From Escherichia coli (GTDB lineage: Bacteria; Pseudomonadota; Gammaproteobacteria; Enterobacterales; Enterobacteriaceae), in NCBI RefSeq assembly GCF_024223415.1, contig NZ_CP100500.1: a stretch of 64,000 nt of DNA, one strand, 5' to 3'. This document shows positions 2,250 through 46,377 of this stretch, piece by piece (within the stretch, counting starts at the first letter, position 1; each line of letters starts with the position of its first letter). Both the position numbers and the translations under genes were made by a program. The notes beneath the pieces were generated by a model, which did no database searches, was not told the origin of the DNA, and saw nothing but the letters and a program-made list of their open reading frames with translations.

Positions 2250-3890
2250 ATGAATACAACTCCCTCACAGCGATTAGGTTTTTTGCATCACATCAGGCTG
2301 GTTCCGTTATTTGCCTGCATTCTTGGCGGTATCTTAGTTCTATTCGCATTAAGTTCTGCTCTGGCTGGCTATTTCCTCTGGCAGGCCGATCGCGATCAGC
2401 GTGATGTTACTGCGGAGATTGAGATTCGGACCGGGTTAGCGAACAGTTCAGATTTTTTGCGTTCAGCCCGGATCAATATGATTCAGGCCGGGGCTGCGAG
2501 TCGTATTGCGGAAATGGAAGCAATGAAGCGAAATATTGCGCAAGCCGAATCGGAGATTAAACAGTCGCAGCAAGGTTATCGTGCTTATCAGAATCGGCCG
2601 GTGAAAACACCTGCTGATGAAGCCCTCGACACTGAATTAAATCAACGCTTCCAGGCTTATATCACGGGTATGCAACCTATGATGAAATATGCCAAAAATG
2701 GCATGTTTGAAGCGATTATCAATCATGAAAGTGAGCAGATCCGAACGCTGGATAATGCTTATACCGATATTTTGAACAAAGCCGTTAAGATACGTAGCAC
2801 CAGAGCTAACCAACTGGCGGAACTGGCCCATCAGCGCACCAGCCTGGGTGGGATGTTTATGATTGGCGCGTTTGTGCTTGCCCTGGTCATGACGCTGATA
2901 ACATTTATGGTGCTACGTCGGATCGTCATTCGTCCACTGCAACATGCCGCACAACGGATTGAAAAAATCGCCAGTGGCGATCTGACGATGAATGATGAAC
3001 CGGCGGGTCGTAATGAAATCGGTCGCTTAAGTCGTCATTTACAGCAAATGCAGCATTCACTGGGGATGACAGTAGGGACTGTTCGACAGGGCGCGGAAGA
3101 GATTTATCGTGGCACCAGCGAAATTTCCGCTGGCAATGCGGACCTTTCATCTCGCACCGAAGAACAAGCGGCGGCTATCGAACAAACTGCCGCCAGCATG
3201 GAGCAACTCACTGCGACGGTGAAACAGAATGCGGATAACGCGCATTATGCCAGCAAACTGGCGCAAGAGGCTTCTATTAAAGCCAGCGATGGCGGGCAGA
3301 CGGTTTCCGGTGTAGTAAAAACGATGGGCGCTATCTCCACGAGTTCGAAGAAGATTTCTGAGATCACCGCCGTCATCAACAGTATTGCTTTCCAGACGAA
3401 TATTCTGGCACTGAATGCTGCCGTTGAAGCCGCGCGAGCGGGTGAGCAAGGGCGTGGATTTGCCGTTGTCGCCAGCGAAGTACGGACACTCGCAAGCCGC
3501 AGCGCTCAGGCGGCGAAAGAGATTGAAGGCTTGATCAGTGAATCAGTCAGGTTAATTGATCTGGGGTCGGATGAGGTGGCAACGGCAGGGAAAACCATGA
3601 GCACTATTGTTGATGCCGTCGCGAGTGTCACACATATCATGCAGGAAATCGCCGCCGCCTCGGATGAGCAAAGTAGGGGCATAACGCAGGTTAGCCAGGC
3701 GATTTCTGAAATGGATAAGGTGACGCAACAGAATGCTTCTCTGGTAGAAGAGGCCTCAGCGGCGGCGGTGTCCCTTGAAGAACAGGCGGCACGATTAACT
3801 GAGGCGGTGGACGTATTCCGTCTGAACAAACATTCTGTGTTGGCAGAACCTCGCGGAGTTGGTAAACCAGTTAGTTTCGCTACGGTGTGA
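2250..3890 (+). CDS. trg: methyl-accepting chemotaxis protein III (ribose/galactose sensor)
   Basis: 546-aa ORF with N-terminal TM, periplasmic domain, second TM, HAMP and the highly conserved MCP signalling domain ([21 protein letters not shown]...). Confidence 0.95.
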
Positions 3891-6635: not shown

Positions 6636-8291
6636 ATGGATCGTAGACGATTTATTAAAGGTTCAATGGCTATGGCCGCCGTGTGCGGTACCAGCGGCAT
6701 TGCTTCTCTTTTTTCTCAGGCGGCATTCGCGGCAGATTCTGATATTGCCGACGGACAAACCCAGCGTTTTGACTTCTCCATTCTACAGTCAATGGCGCAC
6801 GACTTAGCGCAAACAGCGTGGCGTGGTGCGCCTCGTCCGTTACCTGACACGCTGGCGACAATGACGCCGCAGGCTTATAACAGTATTCAATACGACGCCG
6901 AAAAATCGCTCTGGCATAACGTTGAGAACCGTCAACTGGACGCTCAGTTCTTCCATATGGGAATGGGATTCCGTCGCCGCGTTCGTATGTTTTCTGTAGA
7001 TCCAGCAACACATCTGGCGCGTGAAATTCACTTTCGCCCGGAGTTGTTCAAATACAACGATGCAGGTGTTGATACCAAACAATTAGAAGGGCAAAGCGAT
7101 CTCGGCTTTGCCGGTTTTCGCGTGTTTAAAGCCCCCGAACTGGCGCGACGTGATGTAGTATCATTCCTCGGAGCGAGTTATTTCCGCGCCGTTGATGACA
7201 CATATCAATACGGTTTGTCGGCCCGCGGCCTGGCGATTGACACTTACACCGACAGTAAAGAAGAGTTCCCCGACTTTACCGCCTTCTGGTTTGATACGGT
7301 AAAACCGGGGGCAACTACCTTTACCGTTTATGCGTTGCTCGATAGCGCCAGCATTACTGGTGCCTATAAGTTCACTATCCATTGTGAGAAAAGTCAGGTG
7401 ATTATGGATGTGGAAAATCACCTGTATGCGCGCAAAGACATTAAACAGCTGGGCATTGCGCCGATGACCAGTATGTTCAGCTGCGGTACTAATGAACGTC
7501 GGATGTGCGACACCATTCATCCGCAAATTCATGACTCTGATCGTCTGTCCATGTGGCGGGGCAACGGCGAGTGGATTTGCCGTCCGCTGAATAATCCGCA
7601 AAAATTGCAGTTCAATGCTTACACCGACAACAACCCGAAAGGGTTTGGTTTATTGCAACTGGATCGTGACTTCTCCCATTATCAGGACATTATGGGCTGG
7701 TATAACAAACGCCCAAGTCTGTGGGTGGAACCGCGTAACAAGTGGGGTAAGGGCACCATCGGCCTGATGGAAATCCCAACAACGGGCGAAACGCTGGATA
7801 ACATTGTCTGCTTCTGGCAGCCAGAAAAAGCTGTAAAAGCGGGTGATGAGTTTGCATTCCAGTATCGTCTGTACTGGAGTGCGCAACCGCCTGTTCATTG
7901 CCCATTAGCGCGCGTTATGGCGACGCGTACCGGCATGGGCGGTTTCCCGGAAGGTTGGGCGCCAGGTGAACACTATCCCGAAAAATGGGCGCGTCGTTTT
8001 GCCGTCGATTTCGTTGGTGGTGATCTGAAAGCTGCCGCACCAAAAGGCATTGAGCCGGTGATTACGCTTTCCAGTGGGGAAGCGAAGCAAATCGAAATTC
8101 TCTATATTGAACCCATTGATGGTTATCGTATTCAGTTTGACTGGTATCCGACATCGGACTCCACTGATCCGGTCGATATGCGGATGTATCTGCGTTGTCA
8201 GGGCGACGCTATCAGTGAAACATGGCTGTATCAGTATTTCCCGCCAGCGCCGGATAAACGTCAGTATGTTGACGACCGCGTGATGAGTTAA
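6636..8291 (+). CDS. opgD: osmoregulated periplasmic glucan biosynthesis protein D (Tat-exported)
   Basis: 551-aa ORF; twin-arginine signal [32 protein letters not shown]; OpgG/OpgD-family body. Confidence 0.95.
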
Positions 8292-8430: not shown

Positions 8431-8655
8431 ATGTTTCCAGAATATCGAGATTTAATATCCCGTCTGAAAAACGAAAATCCTCGCTTTATGTCCTTGTTCG
8501 ATAAACACAATAAACTTGATCATGAAATTGCCAGAAAGGAAGGTTCCGACGGTCGAGGGTACAATGCGGAAGTGGTCCGCATGAAAAAACAAAAGCTACA
8601 GTTAAAAGATGAGATGCTCAAAATCCTGCAGCAGGAGAGCGTCAAAGAGGTGTAA
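8431..8655 (+). CDS. ydcH: DUF465-family small protein
   Basis: 74-aa ORF from ATG 8431 (the track ORF begins at an upstream GTG); K-12 synteny. Confidence 0.8.
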   Translation: MFPEYRDLISRLKNENPRFMSLFDKHNKLDHEIARKEGSDGRGYNAEVVRMKKQKLQLKDEMLKILQQESVKEV

Positions 8656-8665
8656 ACTTTCCTAA

Positions 8666-8688
8666 GCCGCCAGCCAGGCGGCTTTTTT
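8666..8688 (+). terminator. rho-independent terminator after ydcH
   Basis: GCCGCC-AGCCAG-GCGGC stem-loop followed by TTTTTT. Confidence 0.7.
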
Positions 8689-8717
8689 AACAACTGCATG
8701 GATTGACTGGAGATAAG

Positions 8718-9257
8718 ATGACTGAAACGATAAAAGTAAGCGAATCACTTGAATTACATGCTGTTGCAGAAAATCACGTCACTCCTCTTTATCAGTTAAT
8801 CTGTAAAAATAAAACCTGGTTACAGCAGTCGCTAAACTGGCCGCAGTTCGTTCAGAGTGAAGAGGACACGCGAAAAACGGTGCAGGGTAATGTGATGTTG
8901 CATCAACGCGGCTATGCCAAAATGTTCATGATTTTCAAAGAAGATGAACTTATCGGCGTTATCTCGTTTAATCGTATTGAACCACTGAATAAAACCGCTG
9001 AAATAGGCTACTGGCTGGACGAATCTCATCAGGGGCAGGGGATCATTTCTCAGGCGCTGCAGGCATTGATTCATCATTACGCCCAGTCTGGTGAACTTAG
9101 ACGCTTCGTGATCAAATGTCGGGTGGACAATCCGCAAAGCAACCAGGTCGCTTTGCACAATGGTTTTATCCTTGAAGGTTGCCTGAAACAGGCTGAGTTC
9201 CTGAATGATGCCTATGATGATGTGAACTTATACGCGCGTATTATCGATTCACAATAA
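8718..9257 (+). CDS. rimL: ribosomal-protein-L7/L12 serine acetyltransferase (GNAT)
   Basis: ATG 8718 gives 179 aa; GNAT motifs ([17 protein letters not shown]). Confidence 0.9.
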
Positions 9258-10229
9258 CCCTGCCAGCGGCGTTCGCGTAATGCGCTCCTCGCCGTTAATG
9301 ACTTTTGGACCACGGACATGAACCGTGTCGCCATCAAAGGCTTCAACGACGGCGTGGTCGGTTAACTCCACATGGTTTTCAATTATCACCGCACCTGTAA
9401 TACGGCTCTTACCTTGTATTACAACGTGTTCGTCGAGCAGAATCGGTCCGCCACGTACCACGGCATTTCCGCCAATCAAGACATGATGTTTTAACACACA
9501 ATTACCTTCCACAATGGCATATTCCGCCACCTGTGAACTGTAATGAATCGTCGGAATGGCATCTTCTTCTATGCCAGCTTTCACCTGCGCGTGACCGTAG
9601 ACTTTAGCGCAATCGCATAGCCAGACGTTGTTCTCTTCATTACCTTCAATACTGGCAAAATCAAAAACTTCGGCGCGATGTTCAATAAAAGCATATCGGA
9701 TGACGGCATCGCCATAAATTTGTGCCTGGTGGACAATACGCGAGGCGCTAACCCTTGCGCGATCATAAATTTGTAGCAGGAGTTGATGGTCAGGCGTTAA
9801 GCCTTGTGCTGCGACGATCATAGAATGTTGATTAATTAAGGCGTGACCAAATATTCTACATTGCCCGCAAACCAGTGAGTCATGAATGGTGACGCTGTCA
9901 CTTATATATGCACCCTGGCTGATTTCACTATTATCGATCCAGACATTATCCGTTGCGTAAACCTCTCCCCACAGTACGCTGGTGCCGGTGATGCGCGTAT
10001 TACCGGAAATCACCGTTCCGCCGAACGCAATAGCATTCTGGTCGTAAATCCAGCAATTTCCTTCCTGTGCTAACACCGTTTCGCGATCGATCCAGCCGCC
10101 AGCGGTTCCTGCTATCACATCGTTAAAATCGCTCATGGCGATAATCTGCCGTAATAACACACTTTTTTTAGTGCCATCATCCTGATAACTAAAGGCTCGC
10201 TGTTCTTCACTTAGACGATATTTGCGCAT
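9249..10229 (-). CDS. ydcK: hexapeptide-repeat (left-handed beta-helix) protein
   Basis: 326-aa minus ORF with repeated hexapeptide pattern; 3' end overlaps rimL stop by 9 bp (convergent). Confidence 0.85.
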
Positions 10230-34282: not shown

Positions 34283-34879
34283 ATGATTAAGGTGTATGGC
34301 GTACCCGGATGGGGCTCTACAATCAGTGAGCTGATGCTAACACTGGCTGATATTCCTTATCAGTTCGTTGATGTCAGTGGTTTTGACCACGAGGGAGCTT
34401 CACGCGAGTTATTGAAAACCCTGAACCCGTTGTGTCAGGTTCCGACACTGGCATTGGAAAATGACGAGATTATGACGGAGACAGCGGCGATTGCATTGAT
34501 GGTTCTCGATCGTCGCCCGGACCTTGCGCCACCGGTTGGGCGCGCCGAACGTCAGCAGTTTCAACGGCTATTGGTCTGGCTGGTTGCTAATGTCTATCCA
34601 ACATTCACTTTCGCCGATTACCCTGAGCGTTGGGCTCCTGACGCACCCGAACAGTTAAAGAAGAATGTTATTGAATATCGTAAATCGCTTTATATCTGGC
34701 TGAATTCACAATTGACCCCTGAACCTTATGCGTTTGGTGAGCAACTAACGCTGGTGGACTGTTATCTTTGCACTATGCGCACATGGGGCCTGGGCATGAA
34801 TGGTTTCAGGATAATGCCACGAATATCAGTGCGATTGCTGATGCTGTATGTCAGTTACCGAAATTACAAGAAGTATTAA
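34283..34879 (+). CDS. yncG: glutathione S-transferase homolog
   Basis: 198-aa ORF with GST N-terminal thioredoxin-like fold; exact start uncertain. Confidence 0.8.
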   Translation: MIKVYGVPGWGSTISELMLTLADIPYQFVDVSGFDHEGASRELLKTLNPLCQVPTLALENDEIMTETAAIALMVLDRRPDLAPPVGRAERQQFQRLLVWLVANVYPTFTFADYPERWAPDAPEQLKKNVIEYRKSLYIWLNSQLTPEPYAFGEQLTLVDCYLCTMRTWGLGMNGFRIMPRISVRLLMLYVSYRNYKKY

Positions 34880-35187: not shown

Positions 35188-36006
35188 AAGGATAAATGGC
35201 GTTCTCTGTATTTATTCGCAATTATCTGTAGGACAAATATGGAGAGCTTGATGAGTCAGAGCTAAAACAGCAATTGATTAATAAACATGTTGATTTATTC
35301 AAGAAAATGGATGTATTTTAAATATTGATTCTTAATATAACCTAATCAATAGATTATCACGTGAGAGCTGCACATTATTGGAGGGGCAGGGGAAAACACC
35401 ATTTTGGGAACAATGCATCAGGTACTCTTACCACTGAAGCAAGATCATCCGGGCACCAGGTGGTGGTGCAGTGCTTTGGAAATGGTCCCCTCGGGGGAGT
35501 TGTCATTATTTTCTATGCTATTTGCTTATGATATTCATCAGGTGAATTTAATAAATTCCTAATTTGAAATATCCACTATTAAGCCAGTGTTTAACGACGT
35601 TAAGATGGCAATGTGCAGATCATGTTATCAGGGTGGGGCGGTAGCGTATATTCCTTATACAAATCATCATTCATTTCAATGATTGTTATTAAATTATTTA
35701 TTGTTGTGAATAAAAAGACATTATGAATATTGGTTTAACTTTGCATATCAGGTTTTTTATTACTCGCTGTAATGTACGAGCCTGTCGTGAATAACGTCCA
35801 GAACCCATCCGTTGCGTTTGTGATTATTTTGTTGACTAAACAGACGCCCGTTTCTCTGAAGTAAAATCCCAGACTAAATCATCACATAACCATGACATTT
35901 TCTGATATTCCCCGGTAACGCCAGTTGTCGACTCACTTATTTCATCCGCCCGACATGTTGTACATGCAATATGTGCGGATTATTATTCATTTTCACGGAG
36001 GTTGCT

Positions 36007-38115
36007 ATGTCAACCGGATTACGTTTCACGCTGGAAGTGGACGGCCTGCCACCGGACGCGTTTGCGGTGGTCTCCTTTCATCTGAACCAGTCACTCTCTT
36101 CACTTTTTTCCCTCGACCTTTCTCTGGTCAGTCAGCAGTTTCTTTCCCTTGAATTTGCGCAGGTGCTGGACAAAATGGCCTACCTGACGGTATGGCAGGG
36201 CGATGACGTACAGCGCCGGGTGAAAGGTGTGGTGACCTGGTTTGAACTGGGGGAGAACGACAAAAACCAGATGCTGTACAGCATGAAGGTGTGCCCGCCG
36301 CTGTGGCGCACAGGGCTGCGCCAGAACTTCCGTATCTTCCAGAATGAGGACATCGAAAGCATCCTCGCTACGATATTGCAGGAAAACGGGGTGACCGAGT
36401 GGAGTCCGCTGTTCAGCGAGCCGCATCCTTCCCGTGAGTTTTGTGTCCAGTACGGCGAAACCGATTACGATTTCCTGTGCCGGATGGCGGCGGAGGAAGG
36501 CATCTTCTTTTATGAGGAGCACGCGCAAAAAAGTACCGACCAAAGCCTGGTCCTGTGCGATACCGTGCGTTATCTGCCGGAGTCCTTTGAGATCCCCTGG
36601 AATCCGAACACCCGTACCGAGGTAAGCACCCTCTGCATCAGCCAGTTTCGCTACAGCGCACAAATCCGCCCTTCTTCCGTGGTGACCAAAGACTACACCT
36701 TTAAACGCCCCGGCTGGGCCGGACGTTTTGACCAGGAAGGCCAGCACCAGGATTACCAGCGCACACAGTATGAAGTGTATGACTATCCCGGACGTTTCAA
36801 GGGCGCCCACGGGCAGAACTTTGCCCGCTGGCAGATGGACGGCTGGCGAAACAACGCAGAAGTGGCGCGCGGAACAAGCCGTTCGCCGGAGATATGGCCG
36901 GGACGGCGAATTGTGCTGACGGGGCATCCGCAGGCGAACCTGAACCGGGAATGGCAGGTGGTGGCAAGTGAACTGCACGGTGAGCAGCCGCAGGCGGTGC
37001 CGGGACGCAGTGGTTCAGGTACCTCGCTGAATAACCACTTTGCGGTAATCCCGGCAGACCGGACATGGCGGCCACAGCCGTTGCTGAAACCGCTGGTGGA
37101 CGGCCCGCAGAGCGCCGTCGTGACGGGACCGGCAGGCGAGGAAATCTTCTGTGATGAACATGGCCGCGTGCGGGTGAAATTTAACTGGGACCGCTATAAC
37201 CCGTCAAACCAGGACAGTTCATGCTGGATCCGTGTGGCACAGGCGTGGGCAGGCACCGGATTCGGTAACCTTGCGATACCGCGCGTGGGTCAGGAGGTGA
37301 TTGTGGACTTCCTCAACGGCGATCCGGACCAGCCGATCATTATGGGGCGCACCTACCACCAGGAAAACCGCACACCCGGCAGCCTGCCGGGAACAAAGAC
37401 GCAGATGACCATTCGTTCGAAAACCTATAAGGGCAGCGGGTTTAATGAACTGAAGTTTGACGATGCGACAGGGAAAGAACAGGTCTACATCCACGCGCAG
37501 AAGAACATGAACACCGAGGTGCTGAATAACCGCACCACGGATGTGATAAACAACCATGCTGAGACCATTGGCAACAATCAGATGATTGCGGTTACCAACA
37601 ATCAGATACAGACGGTGGGCGTTAACCAGATAGAGACGGTGGGCAGTAACCAGATCATTAACGTGGGTTCTGTTCAGGTGGAAACGATTGGACTTGTTCG
37701 TGCGCTGACCGTGGGCGTGGCGTACCAGACGACGGTAGGTGGCATTATGAACACTTCGGTGGCTCTGATGCAGTCCTCGCAGATCGGTTTGCATAAATCT
37801 TTGAGGGTCGGGCTGGGTTATGACGTCAAAGTCGGAAATAACGTTACCTTCACCGTTGGTAAAACGAAAAAGGATGATACCGGGCAGACCGCGATTTACT
37901 CCGCCGGTGAGCATCTGGAGCTCTGCTGTGGTAAGGCAAAGCTGGTGCTGACAAAGGACGGTCAAATTTTTCTCAACGGCACAAAAATTCATTTGCAGGG
38001 TAAGGAGCAGGTTAATGGTGACTCACTGTTGATTAACTGGAACTGTGCAGCCTCGAAATCCCCACCGAAGACCCCTGATGAAAAGCAGGATACGCCGGAT
38101 ATGAGAGAGTACTGA
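36007..38115 (+). CDS. vgrG: type VI secretion spike protein VgrG
   Basis: ATG 36007 after GGAGG; 702 aa; gp27-like N-terminus (MSTGLRFTLEVDGLPPDAFAVVSFHLNQSLSSLFSLDLSLVS) and gp5-like beta-helical repeats (VINNHAETIGNNQMIAVTNNQIQTVGVNQIETVGSNQIINVGSVQVETIG). Confidence 0.9.
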   Translation: MSTGLRFTLEVDGLPPDAFAVVSFHLNQSLSSLFSLDLSLVSQQFLSLEFAQVLDKMAYLTVWQGDDVQRRVKGVVTWFELGENDKNQMLYSMKVCPPLWRTGLRQNFRIFQNEDIESILATILQENGVTEWSPLFSEPHPSREFCVQYGETDYDFLCRMAAEEGIFFYEEHAQKSTDQSLVLCDTVRYLPESFEIPWNPNTRTEVSTLCISQFRYSAQIRPSSVVTKDYTFKRPGWAGRFDQEGQHQDYQRTQYEVYDYPGRFKGAHGQNFARWQMDGWRNNAEVARGTSRSPEIWPGRRIVLTGHPQANLNREWQVVASELHGEQPQAVPGRSGSGTSLNNHFAVIPADRTWRPQPLLKPLVDGPQSAVVTGPAGEEIFCDEHGRVRVKFNWDRYNPSNQDSSCWIRVAQAWAGTGFGNLAIPRVGQEVIVDFLNGDPDQPIIMGRTYHQENRTPGSLPGTKTQMTIRSKTYKGSGFNELKFDDATGKEQVYIHAQKNMNTEVLNNRTTDVINNHAETIGNNQMIAVTNNQIQTVGVNQIETVGSNQIINVGSVQVETIGLVRALTVGVAYQTTVGGIMNTSVALMQSSQIGLHKSLRVGLGYDVKVGNNVTFTVGKTKKDDTGQTAIYSAGEHLELCCGKAKLVLTKDGQIFLNGTKIHLQGKEQVNGDSLLINWNCAASKSPPKTPDEKQDTPDMREY

Positions 38116-38181
38116 TCCCGTACCTGTTCGGTATTCAGTAACAAACAAGCATTAAAAATAAACAGAAGAAGGAATTGAATC

Positions 38182-41100
38182 ATGAGCGGAAAACCAGCGG
38201 CGCGTCAGGGAGATATGACTCAGTATGGCGGTCCCATTGTCCAGGGTTCGGCAGGTGTAAGAATTGGCGCGCCCACCGGCGTGGCGTGCTCGGTGTGTCC
38301 GGGCGGGATGACCTCGGGCAACCCGGTAAATCCGCTGCTGGGGGCGAAGGTGCTGCCCGGCGAGACGGACCTTGCGCTGCCCGGCCCGCTGCCGTTCATT
38401 CTCTCCCGCACCTACAGCAGCTACCGGACGAAGACGCCTGCGCCGGTGGGGATTTTTGGCCCCGGCTGGAAAGCGCCTTCTGATATCCGCTTACAGCTAC
38501 ATGATGACGGACTGATACTCAACGACAACGGCGGGCGGAGCATTCACTTTGAGCCGCTGCTGCCGGGGGAGGCGGTGTACAGCCGCAGCGAGTCAATGTG
38601 GCTGGTGCGCGGTGGTAAGGCAGCGCAGCCGGACGGCCACACGCTGGCGCGGCTGTGGGGGGCGCTGCCGCCGGATATCCGGTTAAGCCCGCATCTTTAC
38701 CTGGCGACCAACAGCGCACAGGGGCCGTGGTGGATACTGGGGTGGTCAGAGCGGGTGCCGGGTGCTGAGGACGTACTGCCAGCGCCGCTGCCGCCGTACC
38801 GGGTGCTTACCGGGCTGGCAGACCGTTTCGGGCGGACGCTGACGTACCGGCGTGAGGCCGCAGGCGACCTGGCCGGGGAAATCACCGGCGTGACGGACGG
38901 TGCCGGGCGTGAGTTCCGTCTGGTACTGACCACACAGGCACAGCGGGCGGAAGAGGCCCGCACCTCTTCGCTATCTTCTTCTGACAGTTCCCGCCCTCTC
39001 TCAGCCTCAGCGTTCCCCGACACACTGCCCGGTACCGAATACGGCCCCGACAGGGGTATCCGTCTTTCAGCGGTGTGGCTGATGCACGACCCGGCATACC
39101 CGGAGAATCTGCCCGGTGCGCCACTGGCGCGGTACACGTATACGGAAGCCGGTGAACTGCTGGCGGTATATGACCGCAGCAATACGCAGGTGCGCGCTTT
39201 CACGTATGACGCGCAGCACCCGGGCCGGATGGTGGCGCACCGTTACGCGGGAAGGCCGGAGATGCGCTACCGCTACGACGATACCGGGCGGGTGGTGGAG
39301 CAGCTGAACCCGGCAGGCCTGAGTTACCGCTACCAGTATGAGCAGGACCGCATCACCGTCACGGATAGCCTGAACCGGCGTGAGGTGCTGCATACAGAAG
39401 GCGGGGCCGGGCTGAAGCGGGTGGTGAAAAAAGAACTGGCGGACGGCAGCGTCACGCACAGCGGGTATGACGCGGCAGGAAGGCTCACGGCGCAGACGGA
39501 CGCGGCGGGACGGCGGACAGAGTACGGTCTGAATGTGGTGTCCGGCGATATCACGGACATCACCACACCGGACGGGCGGGAGACGAAATTTTACTATAAC
39601 GACGGGAACCAGCTGACGGCGGTGGTGTCCCCGGACGGGCTGGAGAGCCGCCGGGCATATGATGAACCGGGCAGGCTGGTATCGGAGACATCGCGCAGCG
39701 GGGAGACAGTACGCTACCGCTACGATGATGCGTACAGTGAGTTACCGGCGACGACAACAGATGCGACGGGCAGCACCCGGCAGATGACCTGGAGCCGCTA
39801 CGGTCAGTTGCTGGCGTTCACCGACTGCTCGGGCTACCAGACCCGCTATGAATACGACCGCTTCGGCCAGATGACGGCGGTCCACCGCGAGGAAGGCATC
39901 AGCCTTTACCGCCGCTATGACAACCGTGGCCGGTTAATCTCGGTGAAAGACGCACAGGGCCATGAAACGCGGTATGAGTACAACGCCGCAGGCGACCTGA
40001 CTGCCGTCATTACCCCGGACGGCAACCGGAGCGAGACACAGTACGATGCGTGGGGAAAGGCGGTCAGCACCACGCAGGGCGGGCTGACGCGCAGTATGGA
40101 GTACGATGCTGCCGGACGTGTCATCAGCCTGACCAACGAGAACGGCAGCCGGAGTGAGTTTACCTACGATGCGCTGGACCGCCTGGTACAGCAGGGCGGC
40201 TTTGACGGGCGGACGCAGCGTTACCGTTATGACCTGACCGGAAAACTCACGCAGAGTGAAGATGAGGGGCTTGTCATCCTCTGGTACTACGATGAATCGG
40301 ACCGTATCACTCACCGCACGGTGAACGGCGAACCGGCAGAGCAGTGGCAGTATGATGGCCACGGCTGGCTGAGAGAAATCAGCCACCTGAGCGAAGGCCA
40401 CCGTGTTGCCGTCCACTATGGCTATGACGATAAAGGCCGCCTGACCGGCGAACGCCAGACGGTGGAGAACCCGGAGACGGGGGAACTGCTGTGGCAGCAT
40501 GAGACGAAACACGCATACAACGAGCAGGGGCTGGCAAACCGCGTCACGCCGGACAGCCTGCCGCCGGTGGAGTGGCTGACGTATGGCAGCGGTTACCTGG
40601 CGGGAATGAAGCTGGGCGGGACGCCGCTGGTCGAGTATACGCGGGACAGGCTGCACCGGGAGACGGTGCGCAGCTTCGGCAATAATGCATATGAACTGAC
40701 CAGCACTTACACCCCCGCAGGCCAGTTACAGAGCCAGCACCTGAACAGCCTGGTGTATGACCGTGACTACGGGTGGAATGACAACGGCGACCTGGTGCGC
40801 ATCAGCGGTCCGCGACAGACGCGGGAATACGGCTACAGCGCCACGGGCAGGCTGGAGAGTGTGCGCACCCTCGCACCGGACCTGGACATCCGCATCCCGT
40901 ATGCCACGGACCCGGCGGGCAACCGGCTGCCGGACCCGGAGCTGCACCCGGACAGTACACTCACAGTGTGGCCGGATAACCGAATCACCGAAGACGCGCA
41001 CTACCTGTACCGTTACGATGAATACGGCAGGCTGACGGAGAAGACGGACCGCATCCCGACGGGTGTGATACGGACGGACGACGAGCGGACCCACCACTAC

Positions 41101-42387
41101 CACTACGACAGCCAGCACCGCCTGGTGTTCTACACGCGGATACAGCATGAGGAGCCACTGGTCGAGAGCCGCTACCTCTACGACCCGCTGGGACGGCGAA
41201 TGGCAAAACGGGTCTGGCGGCGGGAGCGTGACCTGACGGGGTGGATGTCGCTGTCGCGTAAACCGGAGGAGACATGGTACGGGTGGGACGGCGACAGGCT
41301 GACGACGGTGCAGACTGACACCACACGTATCCAGACGGTCTACCAGCCGGGGAGCTTCACGCCGCTCATCCGTATCGAGACAGAGAACGGCGAACGGGAG
41401 AAAATGCAGCGCCGCAGCCTGGCGGAGAAGCTGCAGCAGGAAGGAAGTGAGGACGGTCACGGTGTGGTGTTCCCGGCTGAGCTGGTGAGGATGCTGGACA
41501 GGCTGGAGGAAGAAATCCGGGCAAACTGCGTGAGCAGTGAAAGCCGCCAGTGGCTTGCGCAGTGCGGGCTGACGGTGGAGCGGCTGGCGGCACAGATAGA
41601 GCCGGTTTATTTGCCTGAGCGAAAAATACATCTTTATCACTGTGACCACCGGGGCCTGCCGCTGGCGCTTATCAGTGAAGACGGCAATACGGCGTGGCGC
41701 GGGGAGTATGATGAATGGGGCAACCAGCTTAATGAAGAGAACCCGTATTACCTGCACCAGCCATACCGTCTGCCGGGGCAGCAGCATGATGAGGAATCAG
41801 GGCTGTACTATAACCGGAACCGGTACTATGACCCGCTACAGGGGAGGTATATTACACAAGACCCCATTGGGCTGGAGGGGGGATGGAACCTGTACCAATA
41901 TCCGCTGAATCCAGTGCAACACGTTGATCCATTAGGGCTTAGTACTATGATAATAGGTAACGGCCCCGTTCCTGATAATCCTTTTGGGCATGCTGCGGCG
42001 GCAAATCGATATGGATTAATGAGTTCGGGAACTGGGGATGAGATGGGAGCCTCTGTCTCTGATTATTTTAAAAAGATGCAACCCCGCAGAGATACCTGGA
42101 TTTGGATAATAGATACAACAGATGAAGAAGAACAATGTATGATGAATAAGGCAATAGACCTTAATAAAAAACTAAAAACTATTAACCTCGGGCCTCTTCC
42201 TGTTTTAAATAATTGTTTTAGCCGAACGAACATGATTTTTGAGGCGTGCGGGTTTAACAACCCCTCTATGAATACAAATGCGCCTATAAGCCTACAAGTG
42301 CTCGGTGAGCTTTATGGATATCAAAGATATATTATGCCTAAAGGTCCTTTCACTGGATTCCCATTTGAATTTCAAGAGGTAAAGTAA
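38182..42387 (+). CDS. rhsE: PAAR-domain Rhs polymorphic toxin (T6SS effector), 1401 aa
   Basis: N-terminal [31 protein letters not shown] (PAAR motif); many YD repeats ([30 protein letters not shown]...); Rhs core terminating at PxxxxDPLGL (ends 41940); gene symbol assigned by synteny only. Confidence 0.9.
41941..42387 (+). other. Rhs C-terminal variable toxin domain (about 148 aa), family not recognised
   Basis: Begins immediately after DPLGL; base composition switches from GC-rich core to AT-rich; sequence [25 protein letters not shown]...[19 protein letters not shown]... has no motif I can assign. Confidence 0.75.
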
Positions 42388-42786
42388 ATGGAAATGCTTG
42401 GGAAGATATTAGTGATAATTATTTCCATGATAATTATATCTTGTGATTATTATAATGCTGGCATGGACTATCAAGATAATATAGCCCTCGAGCAAGTCGT
42501 AACATGGGATTCTGATAATATATTCACACCTAATATCTTTGAACATAATGGAAGATGTTTTATGAAGAAAAATGAAACATGGATGTTATTAAATGGAGAT
42601 GCAACACCAAACATTAGAACAATGAGCAATAAGAAAATAGAATGCCTGGAGAAGAGTGAAGTAGAATGGGCTAGTAGGGTTTGCGACAGTATCACAGACA
42701 AGGAAAGGGAAAATCTGAAGGCATTAATATGTAGCAAACCAGCTAAATCAGTTAATACAGGCAAAAGACCAGCGTTAGGATATTGA
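42388..42786 (+). CDS. probable Rhs immunity protein (132 aa, lipoprotein-like)
   Basis: ATG directly abuts rhs stop (TAA-ATG); AT-rich; N-terminal hydrophobic stretch ending in lipobox-like IISC. Confidence 0.7.
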   Translation: MEMLGKILVIIISMIIISCDYYNAGMDYQDNIALEQVVTWDSDNIFTPNIFEHNGRCFMKKNETWMLLNGDATPNIRTMSNKKIECLEKSEVEWASRVCDSITDKERENLKALICSKPAKSVNTGKRPALGY

Positions 42787-43229
42787 AACCGGCACTGCAC
42801 TCTATCACTATTACAATATTCTGAGTGACTAGAGCAACTGCTCCGCCATCCGGGCTAGCAGTATGACGACGAATCCGAACTGCACTACAACTGGCACCGG
42901 TACTACAATCCGGGACAGGGACCAGGGAAAGATCACGGTGTGCCGTAGGCACAAAGATGCAAAACGGGACGTTTTGCATGTAATAAGCATAAGCTTGTGA
43001 AGAGATGGTGGCAGGCCCACCGGGATCTGCTGTCGGAAGTCGGTCCCAAACAACCCCGGCTGCTGTGGTAAAGAGCCAAGGTAGTGAGCGCAGGGGGAAC
43101 GATCAGACGAGATCTGATCCTGTGTGAGATACAGTGAGATGAGTAAACCCGAACCTGTGTTGAAACGTCGTTAGTCCTAAGTGACATCAAAACCGGAGGT
43201 TTCGTGATACCGCCTGGATTAATTTACGG

Positions 43230-44725
43230 GTGAATTCCGAATGCTGCGTAAATGGTGTCCGGCGTATAGCAGGCATGACGCTGTATCAGGCTCTTTGCAG
43301 GAACTACGGGAACCAGTCGTCGCAATGTCAAGAGAGAAATACAAATAACCGAAATTATGAGTATGAGAGTATCGATGTGCGAAACCGGGGCAGAGCTGTT
43401 CGTAGTAGTGAGGAAGCGTTTGTAATGAATGTGGAGCGAAGGGGCAACGTCGGGCAGTCTGCATCACAGCCCAACTGTAAACAGGAGGAGGCTGCGGGTG
43501 AACAGACAAAACCGTTTCAGGTCAGTAAATTGCATGTGGTGGAAGCGTACCGTCGGGTAAAGGCGAATGCCGGAGCTGCCGGAGTGGATAACCAGACGCT
43601 GAAAGATTTTGAGCGGGATCTGAAAGGAAATCTGTACAAAATCTGGAACAGGTTATCGTCGGGAAGCTGGATGCCGCCGCCAGTGCGTGCGGTGGAAATT
43701 CCGAAGAAGGATGGCAGTAAAAGGCTTTTAGGAATACCGACAGTAAGCGATCGAATAGCGCAGATGACGGTGCTGGTAACGTTTGAACCATTAGTGGAGC
43801 GTTATTTCCTGAATGATTCATACGGATACCGGCATGGAAAATCAGCGCTGGATGCAATAGCAGTTACCAGAAAACGTTGCTGGCAATACGACTGGTGTCT
43901 TGAGTTTGATATTAAAGGGTTATTCGATAATATCCCCCACGATTTATTACTCAGGGCAGTGGATAAACATTGCGCGGATAAATGGGTAAGACTGTATATT
44001 CGCAGGTGGCTGACAGCGCCGGTGCAGATGCCGGATGGAACACTGAAGGAAAGAAATAAAGGTACGCCACAGGGTGGAGTCATCAGTCCGGTACTGGCGA
44101 ATTTATTTCTGCACTATGTGTTTGATAAATGGCTGTCGTTACATTATCCGGAAATTCCCTGGTGTCGTTATGCAGATGATGGATTAATTCATTGTGGCAG
44201 TAAACAACAGGCAGAGGAATTACTGAATAAACTGGCAAAACGTTTTCAGGAATGTGGACTGGAATTACATCCGGAGAAAACGAAAATAGTTTACTGCAAA
44301 GACAGCTAACGACAGGCGAACCACGAAACAGTGCAGTTTGATTTTCTGGGTTATACGTTCAGGGCGAGAAGAGCACGTAATCAGCGAAGTGGAAATCTCT
44401 TTACGAGTTTCAGTCCGGCGGTGAGTAACAGTGCGCAGAAAGGCATGATCGAAAAACTCAGGAAACTGCGGCTCAGACGCAGGGTGGAGATGAGTCTCGA
44501 AGATATTGCGAAAAGGCTGAATCCGATGATATCGGGGTGGCTGAATTATTACGCGAAATACCACAAAGATATATTAATCTGACGCTGATTGCGTGGGCGA
44601 GAAAGAAATATAAAACCCTGCGGTATAGAAAGACGAAGGCGTGTCAGCTAATGGAAAGGCTGTCAAAAGAGAAGCCGGAGTTGTTTGCCCACTGGAATGC
44701 AGGACCGGAAAGCGCGTTTGCCTGA
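43230..44725 (+). pseudogene. group II intron-encoded reverse transcriptase/maturase, split over three frames
   Basis: 43230-44309 has RT motifs (RLLGIPTVSDRIAQMTVL, PQGGVISPVLANLFLHYV, CRYADDGLIHC); maturase continues in 44331-44582 (FDFLGYTFRARRARNQRSG...GWLNYYAKYH) and 44537-44725 (IAWARKKYKTL...LFAHW), so there are at least two frame disruptions. Confidence 0.75.
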
Positions 44726-44728
44726 CGG

Positions 44729-44762
44729 GAGCCGTATGAAGCGAGAGTTTCACGTACGGTTC
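44729..44762 (+). ncRNA. group II intron ribozyme domain V
   Basis: GAGCCGTATGAAGCGAGAGTTTCACGTACGGTTC fits the domain V consensus (GAGCCGUAUG...ACGUACGGUUC) with catalytic AGC triad. Confidence 0.8.
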
Positions 44763-44945
44763 TGCGAGAGGCTGTCGGGGAGGTTCCGGTGGCCTACTCA
44801 CTTAACGCTGCTTTTTTGTACTAAATAATTCGCATTTTATGTTTAAAAATTGAGATATTCCCCATTACCTAAAGCTGTTTTTTATTGCTTATACATGATC
44901 AAATACTCCTTACATAATTAAGGAGAACAAAATGGAATTAAAAAA

Positions 44946-46067
44946 TTGATGGAACATATTTCTGTTATCCCCGATTACAGACAAGCCTGGAAAGTGGAAC
45001 ATAAATTATCGGATATTCTACTGTTGACTATTTGTGCCGTTATTTCTGGTGCAGAAGGTTGGGAAGATATAGAGGATTTTGGGGAAACACATCTCGATTT
45101 TTTGAAGCAATATGGTGATTTTGAAAATGGTATTCCTGTTCACGATACCATTGCCAGAGTTGTATCCTGTATCAGTCCTGCAAAATTTCACGAGTGCTTT
45201 ATTAACTGGATGCGTGACTGCCATTCTTCAGATGATAAAGACGTCATTGCAATTGATGGAATAACGCTCCGGCACTCTTATGATAAGAGTCGTCGCAGGG
45301 GAGCGATTCATGTCATTAGTGCGTTCTCAACAATGCACAGTCTGGTCCTCGGACAGATCAGGACGGATGAGAAATCTAATGAGATTACAGCTATTCCTGA
45401 ACTTCTTAACATGATGGATATTAAAGGAAAAATCATCACAACTGATGCGATGGGTTGCCAGAAAGATATTGCAGAAAAGATACAAAAACAGGGAGGGGAT
45501 TATTTATTCGCTGTAAAGGGAAATCAGGGGCGACTAAATAAAGCCTTTGAGGAAAAATTCCCGCTGAAAGAATTAAATAATCCAGAGCATGACAGTTACG
45601 CAATCAGTGAAAAGAGTCACGGCAGAGAAGAAATCCGTCTTCATATTGTTTACGATGTCCCTGATGAACTTATTGATTTCACGTTTGAATGGAAAGGGCT
45701 GAAGAAATTATGCGTGGCAGTCTCCTTTCGGTCCATAATAGCAGAACAAAAGAAAGAGCCAAAAATGACGGTCAGATATTATATCAGTTCTGCTGATTTA
45801 ACCGCAGAGAAGTTCGCCACAGCAATCCGAAACCACTGGCACGTGGAGAATAAGCTGCACTGGCGTCTGGACGTGGTAATGAATGAAGACGACTGCAAAA
45901 TAAGAAGAGGAAATGCAGCAGAATTATTTTCAGGGATACGGCACATTGCTATTAATATTTTGACGAATGATAAGGTATTCAAGGCAGGGTTAAGACGTAA
46001 GATGCGAAAAGCAGCCATGGACAGAAACTATCTGGCGTCAGTCCTTGCGGGGAGCGGGCTTTCGTAA
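44946..46067 (+). CDS. ydcC: H-repeat-associated ISAs1-family transposase
   Basis: 373-aa ORF ([45 protein letters not shown]...) typical of H-rpt/ISAs1 transposases found in Rhs elements; start codon (TTG 44946 or ATG 44949) uncertain. Confidence 0.85.
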
Positions 46068-46377
46068 TCTTGCCCTGGTTCGTTGAGTTTTTCTGCATTG
46101 CCGGTAATTTTTGCATCTTCTTTGTCCGTGGCTTGTTTCAGCGTCTATAATGGGCGTTAATAAATTGGCAAGTCGGGAACTTGATGTTTTCTTAATGGTA
46201 TGTAGGCAGAAGAATATGTTCTGCAAGTTGACGATTTGTTGGTGCTTTATTTAAAAGGGTGTAGTGCAAATATCTACAATTTCAAGTAGGCATTATTGTC
46301 GTAAAAACGCATCACCGGACATACGACATTCACAATGTGTGTTAATTTTACTGACATCTTTCAAAAGGAGCACAATC

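Follow-up and report, generated by a model that had tools for sequence, protein, structure and literature searches.

An open reading frame of 373 codons, opening at TTG 44946 and running over positions 44946-46067 (+ strand), is found in the window analyzed here, a stretch of 64,000 nucleotides of Escherichia coli DNA. The initial annotation took it for an H-repeat (H-rpt) transposase of the ISAs1 family that completes a classical Rhs element. This raises the question of where the insertion sequence carrying the frame begins and ends, how its present structure arose, and whether it is still able to move. H-rpt sequences have been described together with Rhs elements for decades. In the ISAs1 family, the transposase binds both terminal repeats, and its DDE active site cuts and rejoins the ends. 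The answer reached here, to which a probability of about 85% is given, is that the element is an RhsE-linked ISEc1 H-repeat copy split by an intron, most likely immobile and now a passive substrate for recombination.

Identity of the Transposase ORF

Family searches with the translated frame returned PF13808 DDE_Tnp_1_assoc (E = 8.5e-34, profile positions 2-88 of 88), PF01609 DDE_Tnp_1 (E = 2.7e-29, positions 3-200 of 200), and the NCBIfam model NF033564 “ISAs1 family transposase”, the last at 409.4 bits over positions 1-314 of 314 against a cutoff of 70 bits. On these scores a chance ORF was rejected for 44946-46067, and the proposed H-rpt/ISAs1 identity of the 373-aa frame was confirmed by the Pfam and NF033564 matches. 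Read from ATG 44949, one codon downstream of TTG 44946, the product is 372 aa long. In near-identical E. coli records PGAP names the gene “ydcC: ISAs1 family transposase”, 372 aa, and annotates it as intact; “ISAs1-like element ISEc1 family transposase” is another annotation among the megablast matches. The frame is assigned as the ortholog of ydcC at the RhsE locus of E. coli, an H-repeat (ISEc1) of the ISAs1 family. The presence of an H-repeat ydcC beside RhsE is already known, and thousands of E. coli genomes carry the annotation.

Limits of the Insertion Sequence

The termini were set by comparing H-rpt copies that lie in different contexts, namely K-12 ydcC, yhhI, ybfL/ybfQ, and ybfD. Across the four K-12 copies and other reference copies, the ends read CAGGGAAAGAT.. 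and ..CTTGCCCTG, and the homology between copies stops on the left at CAGGGAAAGATCA... and on the right at ..TAATCTTGCCCTG, the latter corresponding to window position 46077. The body of the element (ISEc1-like H-rpt, 44803-46077, + strand), which is also the 3' exon of the intron described below, aligned by BLAST with K-12 ydcC, yhhI, and ybfL at 95-97.6% identity, the alignments ending at 46077/46078. The right terminal inverted repeat occupies 46060-46077 on the - strand; it reads CAGGGCAAGATTACGAAA inward, and its end ..CGTAATCTTGCCCTG falls at 46077. The left terminal inverted repeat, CAGGGAAAGATCACG, is located at 42923-42937 (+ strand), where it also forms the 5' exon of the intron, and the same terminus is present in K-12 ybfL/ybfQ, yhhI, and ydcC. 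Exact matches to the pattern CAGGGMAAGATYA occur only at 42923-42935 (+) and 46065-46077 (-), with 0.24 expected by chance. When the right repeat CAGGGCAAGATTACGAAA is compared with the reconstructed left end CAGGGAAAGATCACGTAA, 15 of the 18 positions match.

The insertion sequence is thus delimited as 42923-46077, a length of 3,155 bp with the intron and 1,290 bp (15 + 1,275) without it. Each of the four reference copies has exactly the canonical H-rpt length of 1,291 bp, and the one base missing from the window copy is the start-region deletion discussed below. Elements of the ISAs1 family are about 1.2-1.5 kb long, have terminal inverted repeats beginning CAGGG, and generate a target-site duplication of about 8-10 bp. 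CAGGG-type ends are present at both termini of the window copy, the left one being parted from the body by the intron. Terminal inverted repeats, which had been sought on either side of 44.8-46.1 kb, do therefore exist, but they do not flank that interval, since the left one lies at 42923-42937, upstream of the intron. A repeat scan of the region around 44.6-46.3 kb gave only weak, chance-like pairs, none of them at the true ends. No abutting direct repeat of at least 3 bp was found at the window copy or at any of the four reference H-rpt copies, so the expectation of target-site duplications failed; flanking deletions could have erased such a duplication.

The Group II Intron within the Left End

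The left terminus stands 1.87 kb upstream of its expected place, the body of the element being separated from it by a group II intron. This E.c.I9-type intron of 1,865 bp (42938-44802, + strand) points the same way as the transposase gene. It was recognized by the Rfam models group-II-D1D4-2 (43007-43122, 93.9 bits) and Intron_gpII for domains V/VI (44727-44802, 62.8 bits), by the 5' GUGYG motif, and by its ends, 5' GTGTGCCG and 3' CCTACTCACT, which are identical to those of E.c.I9 at the orthologous locus of ATCC 8739. For the latter, the coordinates are those given in the supplement to Leclercq & Cordaux 2012 (PMC3522654); the window intron differs from it at 54 substituted positions and by a deletion of 22 bp. 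At the same locus ST2747 has an intron-less allele with the sequence CAGGGAAAGATCACG^TAACGCTGCT, continuing onward as CAGGGAAAGATCACG^TAACGCTGCTTTTTTG, and the window carries the sequences of this junction exactly on either side of 42938-44802. Furthermore, the 5' exon ends in the six bases ATCACG, with which a candidate EBS1, CGTGAT (43203-43208), can pair perfectly from a typical EBS1 position; taken alone this candidate is weak, a 6-mer match within 520 nt being expected about 0.13 times.

Full-length copies of the intron were found in 82 of 5,426 complete E. coli genomes. According to Leclercq & Cordaux 2012 (PMC3522654), the Rhs insertion sequences ISEc1-5 are what E.c.I2 and E.c.I9 “specifically target”, and an intron within an H-rpt is therefore known biology. 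The intron belongs to the insertion sequence, lying 15 bp inside the left repeat at the known E.c.I9 homing site. It had been regarded as a separate module of an island, a view at odds with the ST2747 allele and the positions of the repeats, which place it inside the element. The ltrA gene of the intron (43425-44725), encoding a reverse transcriptase/maturase, is a pseudogene. It is interrupted by a nonsense codon (44307-44309) and has lost 22 bp after 44566, which leaves three broken RT/maturase ORFs in the window, and PGAP labels the ltrA of strains GPEC1446 and Combat11I9 “frameshifted; internal stop”.

Translation Start, Catalytic Residues, and Selection

The canonical H-rpt protein has 378 aa and the N-terminus MELKKLMEH, with AAGGAG ahead of its start codon. 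In the window the product has 372-373 aa, lacks MELKKL, and is 6 codons short. When the window was aligned with K-12 ydcC/yhhI and NCTC10444, which all encode MELKKLMEH at the start, a 1-nt deletion emerged between 44937 and 44938, the lost base being the C of GAACTT. Because of this deletion the canonical start is lost, and what remains is a vestigial translation start at 44920-44949 (+ strand). Here, the Shine-Dalgarno sequence AAGGAG (44920-44925) precedes ATG 44932, which now opens a 5-codon mini-ORF, MELKN*, whose stop codon TGA (44947-44949) overlaps ATG 44949 as TGATG. The 372-aa product could arise by re-initiation at this overlap. GPEC1446 and Combat11I9 have the same deletion, and the exact 91-nt start variant is present in only 21 of the 5,426 genomes. 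With regard to whether the ORF is truncated relative to intact transposases, the shortening is slight (372 vs 378 aa, the canonical start being lost) and the frame is otherwise open.

The putative DDE residues are D103 (45255-45257), D166 (45444-45446), and E300 (45846-45848), all kept in the window and invariant in an alignment of 18 sequences down to 65% identity. Their designation as a catalytic triad is proposed from the motif contexts DG, TDAMG, and HWxVEN rather than from a structure. Directly after D103-G104, the window has the substitution K105I (45261-45263, ATA). At this column lysine occurs in 16 of the 18 homologs, and isoleucine only in the window and one paralog. Pairwise Nei-Gojobori analysis of seven H-rpt ORFs gave dN/dS of 0.12-0.25 for the diverged pairs. 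These low ratios show purifying selection on the ORF family, so that the protein family as a whole is not decaying.

Gene Conversion from a Paralogous Copy

Comparison with GPEC1446, the closest relative at the same locus, shows that differences within the element are confined to one tract. The two sequences are identical over 44803-45226 and 45763-46288, with 31 differences within 45227-45762. The chance that 31 differences would cluster in 536 of 1,275 bp is about 2e-12 (0.42^31). The tract, searched with a 551-bp query, has 100% identity with an H-rpt paralog that NCTC10444 and KV7 carry at another locus, where the matching copy lies downstream of a vgrG-DcrB-rhs cluster and adjoins nfrB. 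In a table of variable sites covering the window and five reference copies, the window follows the local allele to 45025; from 45026 onward, as far as the element extends, it agrees with the paralog. From SNP clustering and paralog identity, a gene-conversion tract (+ strand) is delimited at a minimum of 45227-45762 (536 bp) and a maximum of 45026-46077. K105I came in with this tract. The conversion is ordinary recombination between dispersed repeats.

Flanking Junctions

On the left, the terminus of the insertion sequence is directly abutted by a degenerate orphan Rhs core-end remnant (..YYNPGQG) at 42829-42922 (+ strand), reading ..PG*QYDDESELHYNWHRYYNPGQG on translation and containing in-frame stops. 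In ST2747 the orthologous stretch is annotated by PGAP as an RHS pseudogene, partial and with an internal stop, and this strain keeps 25 more bp (..RYIT.DPIG) ahead of the same left terminus. Of six copies examined, four have a truncated Rhs fragment directly adjoining the left terminus, and the breakpoint differs in each.

On the right, strain comparison identified a flank of 211 bp (46078-46288) that is absent in K-12 and Combat11I9; in both of these the right repeat joins the equivalent of 46289, whereas in the window it joins 46078. Within this flank, positions 46080-46146 are left over from the 3' end of an alkyl/aryl-sulfatase gene. In ET826 another 1,211 bp separate the right repeat from the equivalent of 46078; in ST2747 and GPEC1035 a truncated H-rpt is followed by GGDEF and sulfatase genes and then pptA, and ATCC 8739 lacks 45704-46327. 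Both termini of the element abut deletions relative to other strains. Several independent junctions placed exactly at the termini fit past deletions anchored at the ends of the insertion sequence, and such deletions do not show that the window copy is active.

The Rhs Locus and Its Distribution

The gene order of the window is ansP-yncG-yncH, then vgrG-rhs-immunity-intron, the transposase, and pptA. The vgrG gene at the locus has Phage_GPD and Gp5_C domains. The rhs core is a 1,401-aa ORF (38182-42387) with a GC content of 0.60-0.69, whose C-terminal part matches PF03527 RHS, NF041261 RHS_core, and TIGR03696. A classical Rhs element has a GC-rich core, an AT-rich extension, a downstream ORF, and an H-rpt, and is often linked to vgrG; of these parts the locus contains the large GC-rich core ORF with YD repeats and the RHS core end, and a linked H-rpt. 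The tip of the rhs gene is AT-rich (GC 0.34-0.38 at 42.0-42.8 kb), and a 132-aa ORF begins 1 nt past the rhs stop. Neither the tip nor the 132-aa ORF matched a Pfam or NCBIfam family, and their toxin and immunity roles are suggested by position. Gene order and GC content together bear out the initial annotation as to the Rhs linkage, with GC-rich core, AT-rich tip, small ORF, and intron between yncG/yncH and pptA. The corresponding order in GPEC1446 and Combat11I9 is ansP-yncG-yncH-vgrG-rhs-small ORF-ltrA(pseudo)-ydcC-pptA-yddH-nhoA, and K-12 has the reduced order yncH-rhsE(pseudo)-ydcD-yncI(pseudo)-ydcC-pptA.

A megablast search with 44800-46250 gave matches in 5,403 of the 5,426 complete E. 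coli genomes, with at least 80% query cover in 4,914, and many strains carry truncated H-rpt copies. The yncH-side flank and the H-rpt are present in nearly all of the 5,426. No clean empty site joining the yncH and pptA flanks was found among these genomes; the two flanks were brought together in only 36, and the one inspected is an IS1-associated deletion that retains a vgrG fragment. The boundaries of an island are consequently not definable from an empty site. The proposal of an accessory island from 35.2 to 46.1 kb therefore survives only in that the classical parts are present, no clean empty site being available to delimit it. Its left boundary at 35.2 kb is not demonstrated, since K-12 shares the sequence to 35939 and then lacks 35940-40378. 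Nor does the term “accessory” suit a yncH flank and H-rpt of such wide occurrence, and Jackson et al. 2009 (PMC2935791) argue against it, holding that rhs loci are better treated as ordinary genes than as “accessory elements”.

Mobility of the Element and Alternative Explanations

Taken together, these features suggest a history in which an E.c.I9-type intron reached its natural target by retrohoming, 15 bp in from the left terminus, and so placed 1.87 kb between the left repeat and the remainder of the element. Translation of the transposase would then depend on re-initiation at the overlapping TGATG, splicing would be doubtful with the intron's own maturase gene dead, and the copy would now be a passive block of repeated DNA recombining with its paralogs. 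The window copy is probably no longer mobile. This is argued by an intron that splits the left repeat at the inner edge, the loss of the canonical start, K105I after the first catalytic aspartate, and the dead maturase gene, which makes splicing doubtful. On the other side stand the 372 codons, otherwise open and retaining the three putative catalytic residues, the low dN/dS of the family, the preservation of the entire right repeat and of the outermost 15 bp of the left one, the possibility that the TGATG overlap still permits translation, and the fact that the effect of K105I on activity is only predicted. In the literature, transposition of H-rpt “has not been observed” according to the E. 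coli W genome paper (PMC3032704), and mobilome sequencing of K-12 (preprint 10.1101/2024.07.17.603846) gave no elevated coverage of ISAs1 circles. The name ISEc1, as a whole word, does not occur in PMC10711316.

Could the element nevertheless be an active insertion sequence, in which a translationally coupled 372-aa transposase recognizes the outer ends and moves the whole 3.15-kb unit together with its intron? The open ORF with conserved D103, D166, and E300, the intactness of both outermost termini, and the Shine-Dalgarno sequence with a mini-ORF ending exactly on ATG 44949 would all accord with this, as would the purifying selection on the ORF family and the strain-to-strain variation of the junctions at both termini, which suggests end-directed activity in the past. 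Against these stand the absence of a target duplication at the window copy or any copy examined, the intron splitting the inner part of the 18-bp repeat, the lost canonical start codon, and the change of an otherwise invariant residue by K105I. The locus is, moreover, syntenic over thousands of genomes rather than scattered, and transposition of H-rpt is unobserved in the literature (PMC3032704), the mobilome preprint being likewise without elevated ISAs1 circles. Continued mobility is accordingly regarded as very unlikely.

The same observations bear on two readings in which the protein acts on the surrounding locus. The transposase may have been domesticated, being kept for a host function at Rhs loci rather than for its own spread; this function might be, for example, the promotion of end-anchored deletions or of the exchange of orphan toxin/immunity modules. 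A dN/dS of 0.12-0.25 among copies never seen transposing and a place beside Rhs loci fixed in about 4,900 of the 5,426 genomes would be expected under such a function, and the left terminus abutting a truncated Rhs fragment at differing breakpoints in 4/6 copies, the strain-dependent right junction, and the lack of target duplications are in keeping with it. However, a low dN/dS is also expected for a recently active transposase and for copies homogenized by gene conversion, and any link of the H-repeat protein to an Rhs function is hypothetical. Selection for a host function should also have removed the start loss, K105I, and the split repeat, and truncated copies occur in many strains. Domestication is thus judged highly improbable. 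Closely related is the idea that the H-repeat transposase is an end-directed recombinase sculpting Rhs loci, a protein under purifying selection that would prune or reshuffle orphan toxin/immunity modules by terminus-anchored deletions. It is drawn from the left terminus abutting orphan Rhs fragments, with a different breakpoint per locus or strain, and from the right terminus adjoining three different right-flank junctions at the RhsE locus, and it too is considered a long shot. An intron-split, passive H-repeat copy remains the preferred explanation.

The useful outcome is a corrected map. Annotation and the calling of island boundaries should use the element limits 42923-46077, and the corrected coordinates together with the intron-within-IS relationship are the main additions of the present study. 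The window allele offers a compact example of retrohoming into the end of an insertion sequence, gene conversion between copies, and terminus-anchored deletions. All three processes are routine, and current understanding is unchanged.

Comparison with Known Systems

The closest named counterparts of the element are the K-12 copies ydcC (RhsE), yhhI (RhsB), and ybfL/ybfD (RhsC), which resemble the window copy in termini, architecture, and protein family, and all of which are without target duplications. K-12 ydcC occupies the same place as the window copy, between the RhsE locus and pptA. Unlike the K-12 copies, the window copy has an intron 15 bp inside its left end, the start deletion (372 vs 378 aa), and a central tract with the sequence of a different paralog and K105I. 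Its left end is the ..ACGTAACGCT variant of ybfL/ybfQ, whereas K-12 ydcC/yhhI have ..ATCAGAAGTTCAC, and it keeps the right flank of 211 bp that K-12 lacks.

Regarding the intron, the E.c.I9 of ATCC 8739 (NC_010468 2411599-2413485) lies at the same locus, in the RhsE H-rpt next to pptA, and has the same insertion point after ..GATCACG, with about 97% identity to the window intron. The two differ in length (1,865 bp in the window, 1,887 bp in ATCC 8739) and in LtrA, which is intact at 440 aa in ATCC 8739, whereas ltrA is broken in the window. The candidate EBS1 is CGTGAT in the window and GATGAT in ATCC 8739, and the 3' exon has TAACGC and AGAAGT, respectively. The nearest relatives of the whole allele are GPEC1446 and Combat11I9, which share the gene order of the window and its 1-nt start deletion at 99.0-99.5% identity over 12-14 kb. 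Unlike the window, neither has the conversion tract (31 SNPs, 45227-45762), and Combat11I9 also lacks the 211-bp right flank.

Rhs fragments and the H-rpt left terminus

Comparison of the loci demonstrates that Rhs fragments adjoin the left termini of H-rpt, an ISAs1-family insertion sequence, and that the breakpoint varies from one copy to another. In NCTC10444, where H-rpt occupies 8568-9858 of the locus, the left-terminus breakpoint is located in the mid-core YD repeats. The Rhs sequence is broken at ..DPIGLAG in ET826 (left terminus at 3499), at ..DPIG in ST2747 (left terminus at 7091), and at ..GQG in the window (H-rpt at 42923-46077). Repeated truncation of orphan rhs modules, anchored at the H-rpt terminus, would fit this pattern.

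It can also be observed that the rhs core (window 38500-41500) is mosaic with respect to close relatives. Against the same-locus allele of GPEC1446, SNPs are concentrated in a 1-kb segment, 40.0-41.0 kb, which holds 57 of them; against that of Combat11I9 the only SNP cluster in the core lies at 39.5-40.0 kb, comprising 13 SNPs. Such clustering suggests recombination within the core repeats. Downstream of the DPLGL motif, the AT-rich C-terminal tip of Rhs, a putative toxin, and the 132-aa ORF next to it, a putative immunity gene (together window 41950-42786), gave no significant match in Pfam or NCBIfam; the same small protein is present in GPEC1446 and Combat11I9 as WP_000425544.1.

Flanking genes

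In ST2747 and GPEC1035, an intact alkyl/aryl-sulfatase gene and a GGDEF-domain gene are located between H-rpt and pptA. Both are deleted in the window lineage, in which a 67-bp remnant of the sulfatase 3' end is retained at 46080-46146 (88-90% identity). Upstream of pptA, at 46122-46151, lies the region's best sigma-70-like match, TTGTCC-18 nt-TATAAT (10/12 positions). Since it falls inside a 211-bp stretch absent from K-12 and Combat11I9, promoter use at pptA may differ between strains with and without this stretch. The ORF of yncG (glutathione S-transferase family; window 34283-34879) encodes 198 aa, compared with 205 aa in K-12, and is annotated as frameshifted by PGAP in the near-identical loci of GPEC1446 and Combat11I9.

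EBS1 candidates of E.c.I9

The EBS1 candidate of the window group II intron (43200-43208) reads CGTGAT, pairing at 6/6 positions with its own 5' exon, ATCACG. In the E.c.I9 copy of ATCC 8739, by contrast, the candidate reads GATGAT, which pairs with its own exon at only 4/6 positions and would pair at 6/6 with ATCATC, the H-rpt left-end variant of the K-12 ydcC/yhhI type. As the two candidates match different left-end variants, base complementarity hints at two E.c.I9 sub-lineages, each tuned to one of them.
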